Source: a virus (lineage: Duplodnaviria > Heunggongvirae > Uroviricota > Caudoviricetes). Taken from it: a stretch of DNA of 10,789 bases. The notes beneath the pieces are model-generated. The model worked only from the letters and a program-made list of their open reading frames with translations. It searched no databases and was not told where the DNA came from. Positions 5,691 to 6,702 of this stretch are shown piece by piece. Numbering within the stretch: the first letter of the stretch is position 1; each line of letters begins with the position of its first letter. A program made the position numbers and the translations under genes. Location of the stretch: positions 1 through 10,789 of IMG/VR virus record IMGVR_UViG_2541047124_000012. One strand, 5' to 3'.

Positions 5691-6702
5691 AAAGGTGAAA
5701 ACCGGCAGTTCATCCAGTAAGTCAGTATTGACCTGGCTTGCTGATATGTGCGGTGCCGATTTGTGTGCATACCCGTCTGTATCTGCACTGGCAGAAGTAA
5801 CGGAACTGAACAAAAAGACTGTGCAGGACAGCTTACGACACCTGATGGAGATTGGGTTAATTGTTGATACCGGTGAGAGAAAAGGCAGAACAAAGCAAAT
5901 TGTGGTGTACCGACTTATCGGTGTAGAAGAAAGTGTTGCCGAGCCTGAATACACCCAAAAACGGGAGTCTTTAAAGGTGGGTAAAATTGGTGCTGTTAAT
6001 AAAAACAGTACCGAAAATGGTTATGTTTCAGCACAAAAGAGCCCCAAAAACGGAACTCTTTGTTGCATGGAAAATAACCAAAGACACCCAAATTTTCCAT
6101 CAAAGACACCCAAAAACGGATCACGGAACCCAAAGGAACCCAAAGATCTAAACCCCACACATAACGCACGCGAGAGTGCTCCGACCAGTGAGCAGGAAGT
6201 TTTGTCGTTACAGGCAGCCCCCCATGTATTCCTGGATGGCCTGAGCGAACCCATCGGAAAATTTCCGATGACCGATAGCTGGTATCCGTCACGGGATTTT
6301 CGACGACGGGCTGCGTTGTGGGGGATGGCTTTGCCGGAGACAGAATTTACACCTGCTGAACTTGCCGCCTTCCGGGACTACTGGGCAGCGGAGGGGAAAG
6401 TGTTTACGCAGATTCAGTGGGAGCAGAAATTCGCCCGTCACGTAAATCACGTCAGGGCGCAGGTTAAACCAGTCAGCAAGGGGGTAAACCATGCAGCAGC
6501 ACCAGGTGGCACCGCATCACGGGCAGTTCAGGAAATTCGGGCAGCACGTGAGCAGTGGGAACGTGAAAACGGATTTATCAGCGACGGAAACGGCCTGGAA
6601 GCTGTGGGAACTCATGGGGGAGGTTTATTCGAACCGCTGGATCCAGAAGAACGGGGCCGCACCTTCGAAGCTCTGGATTGCACAGATTGGCGCGATGACT
6701 GA
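5662..6702 (+). CDS. Phage replication initiation protein: N-terminal HTH domain, low-complexity linker, C-terminal DnaT-like domain
   Basis: Internal ATG 5662 of track ORF 5587..6702, preceded by GGGGGG (5653..5658). C-terminal block GKFPMTDSWYPSRDFRRRAALWGMALPETEFTPAELAAFRDYWAAEGKVFTQIQWEQKFAR matches my memory of the DnaT C-terminal domain. Linker contains repeated (S/T)PKNG. Confidence 0.8.
   Translation: MSIDALRWAKKVKTGSSSSKSVLTWLADMCGADLCAYPSVSALAEVTELNKKTVQDSLRHLMEIGLIVDTGERKGRTKQIVVYRLIGVEESVAEPEYTQKRESLKVGKIGAVNKNSTENGYVSAQKSPKNGTLCCMENNQRHPNFPSKTPKNGSRNPKEPKDLNPTHNARESAPTSEQEVLSLQAAPHVFLDGLSEPIGKFPMTDSWYPSRDFRRRAALWGMALPETEFTPAELAAFRDYWAAEGKVFTQIQWEQKFARHVNHVRAQVKPVSKGVNHAAAPGGTASRAVQEIRAAREQWERENGFISDGNGLEAVGTHGGGLFEPLDPEERGRTFEALDCTDWRDD
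5949..6146 (+). repeat. Iteron-like direct repeats inside the replication initiator gene (candidate origin of replication)
   Basis: ACACCCAAAAACGG at 5951..5964 and 6106..6119; GCCCCAAAAACGG at 6041..6053; AGACACCCAAA at 6082..6092; tandem GGAACCCAAA at 6125..6145. Confidence 0.45.

Follow-up and report, generated by a model that had tools for sequence, protein, structure and literature searches.

A probable replication origin formed by iterons within the initiator gene of a lambdoid prophage

Within the replication initiator gene of a viral DNA of 10,789 bp (Caudoviricetes; IMG/VR record IMGVR_UViG_2541047124_000012, the whole of which is called the window here) lies a cluster of CCCAAA-containing direct repeats, which raises the question of whether these repeats are kept for the sake of the DNA or of the peptide that they encode, and, if for the DNA, whether they constitute the replication origin of the prophage. 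That the lambda origin is inside its initiator gene is textbook knowledge, repeats in lambdoid genomes are routinely taken as signs of such origins, and a sequence-only reading of the window had proposed a candidate origin at this place. The repeats are very probably a functional element at the DNA level that is tied to the N-terminal domain of the initiator, and positions 5951-6144 are probably the iteron array of a prophage replication origin contained within the initiator gene, the functional equivalent of ori-lambda in gene O. The gene, its parts and the six repeats (R1 to R6) are as follows (aa, amino acids).

5662-6702, plus strand: replication initiator gene, 346 aa, functionally O-like, with an N-terminal winged helix, a disordered linker and a C-terminal DnaT-like domain
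5662-5928, plus strand: N-terminal winged-helix domain (N-domain), aa 1-89, the presumed iteron-binding domain (AlphaFold, Foldseek, hhalign)
5951-5965, plus strand: iteron R1, full copy ACACCCAAAAACGGG, frame +1, encoding T-Q-K-R
5966-6041, plus strand: AT-rich spacer between R1 and R2, candidate unwinding region, with a degenerate copy ACCGAAAATGG at 6010-6020
6040-6054, plus strand: iteron R2, AGCCCCAAAAACGGA, frame 0, encoding S-P-K-N-G
6083-6098, plus strand: iteron R3, variant copy ACACCCAAATTTTCC, frame +2, encoding H-P-N-F-P
6106-6120, plus strand: iteron R4, full copy ACACCCAAAAACGGA, frame 0, encoding T-P-K-N-G, the best-conserved copy
6125-6144, plus strand: R5 and R6, tandem GGAACCCAAA half copies, frames +2 and 0, encoding NPKE and EPKD
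6142-6150, plus strand: mosaic junction, with the N-domain and iteron module upstream and the C-domain and loader module (Rac-type ydaU/ydaV) downstream
6250-6462, plus strand: DnaT-like single-stranded-DNA-binding domain (C-domain), aa 197-267 (Pfam PF17948, PDB, Foldseek)

The six repeats that had been noticed in some 200 bp of the gene were found at 5954-6144, where CCCAAA starts at 5954, 6043, 6087, 6109, 6129 and 6139, always on the plus strand; these are six of the nine copies present on both strands of the window, gathered within 191 bp. The window-wide total is ordinary (nine seen, 9.1 expected); it is the clustering that is unusual, for none of 2000 first-order Markov shuffles gave six same-strand copies in 200 bp, the maximum being five, reached once. 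The array comprises three full copies of (A)CACCCAAAAACGG (R1, R2 and R4), an AAATTTT variant (R3) and the half copies R5 and R6. Two exact copies of a 14-mer and a tandem pair, reported by the same reading, are both present: ACACCCAAAAACGG occurs exactly twice in the window (5951-5964 and 6106-6119), and the half copies adjoin each other at 6125-6134 and 6135-6144. With up to one mismatch allowed, ACCCAAAAACGG is found across the whole window only at 5953, 6042 and 6108 (R1, R2 and R4). The spacing from copy to copy is irregular (89, 44, 22, 20 and 10 bp), and its helical phasing (approximately multiples of 10-11) is suggestive and too loose to serve as evidence. A perfect 9-nt inverted repeat (ATGGAAAAT at 6067-6075, ATTTTCCAT at 6092-6100) flanks R3; homologues do not keep it, and it is probably due to chance. 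A negative dip of GC skew over 6000-6200, considered as a strand-switch signal, reflects only the C-rich, A-rich repeats and was not used.

The array codes for aa 96-162, which places it, as had been claimed, between an N-terminal helix-turn-helix (HTH) domain at aa 1-89 and the DnaT-like domain at aa 197-267. The protein matches phrog_1032 (replication initiation protein) over aa 1-298 (E 2.3e-90), and its ATG at 5662 agrees with the N-termini of homologues (MSIDA...) and with the corresponding coding sequence (CDS) of the PPompW prophages of enterohaemorrhagic Escherichia coli (EHEC). AlphaFold predicts aa 1-89 to be a winged HTH (H-H-H-H-E-E; predicted local distance difference test [pLDDT] score 74-89), Foldseek matches this domain to winged-HTH regulators and to the plasmid Rep-DNA complex 5kbj, and its score against HTH_36 (PF13730) is 20.9 bits, under the 25-bit cut-off, aligned relatives scoring 30-49 bits. 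Residues 90-195, with pLDDT below 50, are a predicted disordered linker that includes all of the array-coded segment. The C-domain matches the DnaT domain PF17948 at aa 201-267 (E 6.6e-17, 61.4 bits against a 25-bit cut-off) and DnaT chains in the PDB (E ~1e-18 to 1e-19), and its predicted structure superposes on 6aeq with a template modelling (TM) score of 0.92 and a root-mean-square deviation of 0.8, and on 4ou6 with a TM score of ~0.9.

In translation the frame offsets of the six copies are 1, 0, 2, 0, 2 and 0, giving TQKR, SPKNG, HPNF, TPKNG, NPKE and EPKD. The sequence-only reading had described the linker as a repeated S/T-PKNG, which is right as to the location of the linker and wrong as to its composition, S/T-PKNG being encoded by only two of the six copies and TQKR, HPNF, NPKE and EPKD by the others in other frames. 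A codon alignment was built from homologues that were found through N-domain peptides, and so chosen by protein similarity and not by the DNA motif. In this alignment the R4 orthologues share the DNA CCCAAAAACGGGATCCGGAA and yet translate it differently, as PKNGIRN in Kluyvera (L002) and as PQKRDPE in Edwardsiella (L005); the frame of R3 also differs between lineages, the Edwardsiella orthologue ACACCCAATTTTGGAGGG being read in another frame; R1 is kept as ACC CAA AAA CGG in homologues from Edwardsiella, Serratia and Kluyvera; and the R6 region is kept as AGGAACCnnAAAGAT. Synonymous positions within the motif are fixed, or nearly so: proline is CCC in 30/30 cases (background elsewhere in the same genes, 8%), lysine AAA in 25/25 (42%), asparagine AAC in 42/43 (62%) and arginine CGG in 9/9 (19%). 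This is the comparison of synonymous change with conservation of the repeat unit that the earlier reading had proposed, and that reading also named homologues lacking the repeats as evidence to be sought against it; the homologues were found to keep them. On this evidence, constraint acts on the DNA and not on the peptide, and the array is conserved independently of what it encodes. The claim that selection at the DNA level explains the odd peptide is borne out by the frame independence of the copies and the fixed synonymous positions, and since the DNA has to retain the sites, we propose that the linker peptide (TQKR / PKNG / HPNF / NPKEPK) is largely their by-product.

The pairing of N-domain and array extends well beyond the window. 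A tblastn search with the N-terminal half of the initiator found relatives in Escherichia phage phiV10, Edwardsiella phages EPP-1 and GF-2, Acinetobacter phages LZ35, AP22 and AB1, H20-like phages of Vibrio anguillarum and Burkholderia phage Bcep176. All six of the genes examined (phiV10, LZ35, H20, Bcep176, GF-2 and EPP-1) have an array of CCC(A/G)AAA(A/T)(C/T)GG that directly follows the 3' end of the N-domain and comprises 3-7 copies at 17-33 nt spacing, at N-domain identities to the window of 33-59%. Vibrio H20 has five copies of CCCGAAAACGG at 24-nt spacing, and the GF-2 iteron ATCCCAAAATTGGGAT is clearly palindromic (ATCCCAA-AA-TTGGGAT), its dyad plainer than that of the copies in the window; R3 is similar to the AAATT variants among the iterons of lambda (ITN3), LZ35 and GF-2. 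In phiV10, three tandem 12-mers (AACCAGTCATAT, AACCAGTCATAT and AACCAGTCATTT; L011 1909-1944) directly follow the iterons and bring to mind the AT-rich 13-mers that are repeated in the unwinding elements of oriC; nothing comparable is present in the window.

The same pairing emerges when contigs are selected by the motif instead of the protein. A scan of IMG/VR for CCCAAAAACGG N6-30 CCCAAAAACGG, a pattern of 22 specified bases for which we take the number of chance matches in that database to be well below one, matched at least 120 contigs, in which the N-domain was scored with a hidden Markov model built from ten members. In 111 of the 120 contigs listed, an open reading frame (ORF) that carries the N-domain contains the array on its coding strand, with a start -8 to +120 nt from the end of the domain; in another (L144) the contig end interrupts, and L154 is unassigned. 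Judged from these contigs, the pairing of array and N-domain is common to phage initiators of a large family that had not been characterised before. In L137 (2368-3141) a lambda-O-family gene (phrog_277, E 2.5e-42) contains the array, with iterons TTACCCAAAAACGGGTAA and TTACCCAAATTCGGGTAA, and a DnaC-like loader comes next; therefore, a PF04492-type protein also uses the same iteron core. Six listed contigs (L126, L170, L180, L186, L192 and L200) have arrays outside any initiator gene, covered only by an ORF of 59-101 aa. These arrays consist of 2-4 copies of (A/C)(T/C)CCCAAAAACGGG at an exact spacing of 24 nt, the final one being a palindromic variant (CCCAAAATTGGG, CCCAATTTTGGG or CCCAATATTGGG), as in the following two examples.

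L186, 6211-6300: non-genic array
L170, 7875-7925: non-genic array

Since L170 carries both an in-gene array (518-603) and a second array 7.3 kb downstream, the non-genic arrays may be second, oriR-like sites, or else they may be origins of elements that borrow an initiator. A further motif cluster was sought in the window and in the related 44-kb PPompW prophage, and neither had one.

The boundaries of sequence similarity are consistent with this pairing. Similarity by blastn to Rac-SA53, TL-2011b and others begins at nt 481-489 of the gene, which is 6142-6150 of the window, the end of R6: aa 161-346 are 87% identical to YdaU of Rac-SA53 and aa 1-160 are unrelated to it, the adjoining loader is 98% identical to YdaV of Rac-SA53, and Rac-SA53 ydaU, with its different N-terminus, has no such repeats. 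On the other side, Edwardsiella homologues keep the N-domain and the array with a Phg_2220_C C-terminus, the DnaT-like C-terminus being that of Enterobacteriaceae, and the similarity of Serratia and Plesiomonas homologues is confined to the N-terminal part. Partners being swapped on both sides, the N-domain with the iterons is one exchangeable unit and the C-domain with the loader another; as far as these mosaics tell, each is inherited as a module. The peptide KDLNPTH (DNA AAAGATCTAAACCCCACACAT, 6142-6165) is situated exactly at the junction and is kept both in the N-module family and in Rac-type YdaU proteins with another N-terminus; its site may be a recombination joint between the modules.

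From these features we infer binding by the N-domain, unwinding of an AT-rich tract, recruitment of a loader and firing of the origin, in a sequence that would begin with derepression, rightward early transcription and synthesis of the initiator. The winged-helix domain at aa 1-89, which probably acts as a dimer, would bind the same-orientation copies of (A)CACCCAAAAACGG(G), with R1, R2 and R4 as full binding sites and R3, R5 and R6 as variant or half sites. The phased A-tract sites would then be wrapped or bent into a complex like the O-some, destabilising the weakest nearby duplex (5972-6041), and the DnaT-like C-domain would recruit the complex formed by the P-like loader and host DnaB, and might also hold single-stranded DNA, whereupon replication would start. 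The tract at 5972-6041 is the least stable duplex of the gene, 40-nt windows in it being 65-70% AT with dG of -47.4 to -49.4 (gene mean -55.5, standard deviation 3.6).

Several observations weigh against this reading. The right flank of the array (6146-6250) is only 40-53% AT, the AT-rich tract being instead between R1 and R2, where it is milder (65-70%) than that of lambda (70-75%) and where the length of the segment varies among homologues; because its placement departs from lambda and its length varies, the model is least secure as to where the DNA opens. No more than three of the six copies are full sites, and the dyad arms are short (CCC...GGG, at most TCCC...GGGA). The 3' CGG of R2 (6051-6053) is polymorphic among close alleles (47 alleles compared), and R2 is therefore less constrained. 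The p-values for codon usage overstate independence, the sequences sharing ancestry, at N-domain identities between lineages of only 33-60%. The array is on the coding strand in 111/111 in-gene cases (from at least 120 matched contigs) and its core has an A5 run, as might be expected of a role in RNA. Literature searches returned no description of the motif or of an origin for an HTH_36/DnaT-type initiator, motif strings giving only unrelated primer coincidences.

The alternative that survives best is that the sites bind the initiator mainly for regulation, whether as autoregulation, as a transcriptional roadblock on expression of the loader or as copy control by handcuffing, and that the DNA opens elsewhere. 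The linkage of N-domain and array shows only that the two belong together and not what binding does; in addition, the strong AT-rich element to the right of the lambda array is missing here, and the second array of L170, far from the gene, indicates that arrays can occur outside an initiator gene. However, the equivalent arrangement in lambda is the origin (PMC7466680, PMC8022706), those of P22 and phage L are annotated or inferred as origins (PMC8022706), the weakest duplex of the gene is within the array, and neither the window nor the 44-kb PPompW prophage offers another motif cluster, for which reasons a mainly regulatory role is considered improbable.

Much less probable is that selection maintains a flexible, low-complexity linker rich in proline, lysine and asparagine, with a PKNG-like motif of which the DNA repeat is the shadow. 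In its favour, PKNG is invariant at one position, QRHPFFPS and KDLNPTH are kept among homologues that are 52-60% identical, and the region is predicted to be a disordered linker. Such selection does not account for one DNA word being translated in three frames within the gene, for orthologous copies being shifted in frame between genera or for the fixation of synonymous positions. Because it is predicted to be disordered, the array-coded segment tolerates peptide change, and a natural allele (P0005) lacks exactly 22 aa of it (66 bp in frame, equal to the spacing of R2 and R4), from which it follows that the linker peptide is dispensable and that the copies recombine. Constraint on the DNA thus remains the preferred explanation of the linker.

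Variation within the population bears on a further alternative, that the repeats are functionless products of neutral slippage or recent duplication in a tolerant linker. A polymorphism map was made from 80 copies in IMG/VR (97-99% identical; 47 distinct alleles, 131 variable columns), and the segment is present in 907/5426 complete E. coli genomes, including O157, O111 and O103 EHEC. Slippage would be in keeping with the tandem 10-bp pair at 6125-6144 and with the polymorphism of copy number and length among alleles (P0005, H112 and H113). H112 (NZ_CP169026) and H113 (NZ_CP035879) are rare E. coli variants in array length, one with a match shorter by 10 bp and one with a larger gap; the 10-bp loss, in an allele whose gene is annotated as two CDSs, is probably the removal of one GGAACCCAAA unit. 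Against this, there are no variable sites in 6071-6147 (R3 to R6) or in the core of R1, with 7-11 in each flanking 60-nt bin among the 47 alleles; the core is kept in Escherichia, Edwardsiella, Vibrio, Acinetobacter and Burkholderia phages that have no more than 33-40% identity in their N-domains; and the exact 11-mer pair recurs in at least 120 independent viral contigs, so that neutrality is scarcely tenable. Equally implausible is a role in RNA, for instance through ribosomes pausing or slipping at the A-rich run or through a protein binding the mRNA there, despite the coding-strand bias and A5 run noted above: in our reading of the sequence, none of the used frames makes CCC AAA AAC a canonical X XXY YYZ slippery heptamer (programmed frameshifting at CCCAAAAAC was rejected on that ground and because of the many copies in three frames), the motif occurs 3-8 times per gene in three frames, some arrays (L186-type) are outside long ORFs, and the partial dyad symmetry and lambda-like form suit a dimer that binds duplex DNA.

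The gene neighbourhood of this probable origin is that of a lambdoid prophage early region, with the following genes around the initiator.

4443-4850, minus strand: DicA/cI-like repressor gene
4901-5155: P22-Cro-like gene
5139-5690: cII/YdaT-like gene
6695-7156, plus strand: lambda-P-like helicase-loader gene (PF06992, E 1.1e-15, 58 bits; phrog_109, P-like helicase loader)
7343-7924: DUF1627 gene

The initiator gene is 98.8% identical in DNA to that of the EHEC PPompW prophages, and the annotated order of PPompW early genes likewise agrees. Its stop codon is overlapped by the ATG of the loader gene (ATGACTGA, 6695-6702) and its first 29 nt (5662-5690) are shared with the end of the cII/YdaT-like gene, overlaps that suggest translational coupling along the operon. 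In the public records inspected, no origin is annotated at the initiator gene, which is named only as encoding a DnaT-like ssDNA-binding domain-containing protein. Further downstream, ORFs at 8784-9542 and 9821-10033 are, judging from conserved gene order and size, the cargo genes annotated in PPompW, where their counterparts encode a Paa/AdfO-type adherence factor with a signal peptide and a Hok/Gef-type small toxin (MKQQKAMLIALIVICLIVIV...). The left arm of the window (398-2175) is unlike PPompW: it has an apparent C-terminal integrase fragment (398-949, minus strand, 183 aa) and an ORF of 414 aa (931-2175, minus strand), in the position at which PPompW has intE, xis and an exonuclease pseudogene. 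From this difference, the prophage of the window may be a different mosaic or a remnant.

The analysis narrows the probable origin of a widespread E. coli prophage replication module to ~200 bp, and offers a DNA signature, at least two copies of CCCAAAAACGG on the coding strand just past a winged-helix domain, that marks a likely origin in more than 100 phage genomes of several genera. Of greatest interest are how widely one iteron core is conserved and that the sites are translated in three frames, the array being an unusually clear case in which the constraint of a DNA site overrides the reading frame. Possible uses include the study of prophage induction and replication in EHEC, of replicon interference between prophages, and of phage-derived vector parts. 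A wider generalisation, that the core CCCAAAAACGG (with variants CCCGAAAACGG and CCCAAAATTGGG) is the near-universal iteron of winged-helix initiators that form a large superfamily among phages of Gamma- and Betaproteobacteria and include some lambda-O-family proteins, and that lambda iterons are an expanded form of it, is put forward tentatively and is on the whole doubtful. If such shared recognition were true, co-resident prophages could cross-activate or titrate each other's origins, the L186-type arrays, like the second array of L170, could act as secondary origins or as those of satellites that borrow the initiator of a helper phage, and the linker, as a translated iteron, would be a clean natural example of protein sequence dictated by a DNA-binding site in any frame.

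Among known systems, the closest in plan is lambda, whose iterons inside gene O are the origin (PMC7466680, PMC8022706), together with its Shiga toxin (Stx) phage variants, in which the lambda-type iterons number six (PMC7466680). The replication types of Stx phages known as Eru are different modules. The lambda-like arrangement proposed by the sequence-only reading is supported by the in-gene array, the module of N-domain and array, and the P-like loader gene that comes next, with the AT tract differing in placement. As in lambda and its Stx variants, same-orientation iterons lie midway along the initiator gene, flanked by the coding sequences of a DNA-binding N-domain and of a C-domain that cooperates with the loader; as in lambda, the iteron-coded linker is dispensable and iteron number changes by in-frame deletion, the N-domain and ori form one specificity module, and a P-family loader gene overlaps the initiator stop codon. 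The plan of the iterons (CCC..AAAAC..GGG) is also the same, lambda having ATCCCTCAAAACGAGGGA where the window has ACACCCAAAAACGGGA, and one AAATT variant being included among the four lambda iterons. In contrast, the C-domain encoded in the window is DnaT-like and not lambda-O-like, its iterons are shorter (a core of 11-15 bp with arms of 3-4 bp) and irregularly spaced, and its weakest duplex is inside the array, whereas that of lambda (70-75% AT) is directly to the right of iteron 4.

The initiator of the window had no match to Phage_rep_O (PF04492) at E up to 0.01, lambda O scoring 123 bits, and pairwise BLASTP against lambda O found no similarity; it is therefore not a member of the lambda O family. 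The N-terminal parts of the window initiator and of lambda O both match phrog_678 and phrog_345, and hhalign aligns the two N-domain families over 50 columns covering the HTH and the wing (probability 88.5%, E 2.8e-6), the lambda-O-type profile having been built from relatives of L137 and of P22 gp18, as the relatives of lambda O retrieved from IMG/VR were near-identical copies only. Both N-domains end just before their own iterons. The initiator is a functional analogue of lambda O and, by these profile comparisons, probably a distant homologue, which extends the lambda paradigm of an origin-specificity module joined to a loader-interaction module to initiators with a DnaT-like C-domain.

In P22, repeats are likewise situated in gene 18, the analogue of O, and the P22 record annotates a rep_origin "similar to phage lambda"; the iterons are unrelated, TTACC(A/G)(G/A)ATCGGTAAA. 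The origin of phage L is inferred from six imperfect 11-bp repeats in its gene 18 (PMC8022706), also unrelated to those of the window (TGTCCAACGGA). Both P22 and phage L differ further in having a DnaB-type helicase (gp12) instead of a P-like loader.

More distant systems share the principle. Bacillus phage SPP1 has G38P, with oriL within gene 38 and oriR elsewhere, and lactococcal and streptococcal phages have replisome-organiser genes with internal origins. SPP1 resembles the window in that the origin repeats are within the gene of the origin-binding protein, and the two arrays of L170 recall its oriL and oriR; it differs in protein families and hosts, and in its second site, no second array having been found in the window or PPompW. 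Iteron plasmids of the RepA, pi and RepE types have their iterons outside the rep gene, and their initiators combine two winged-helix domains with a monomer/dimer switch; DnaA boxes and control elements of the plasmid kind were not noticed in the window, no search having been aimed at them. These plasmids share with the window the combination of a winged-helix initiator and direct repeats, and the likeness of the N-domain to such initiators is seen in the Foldseek match to 5kbj.

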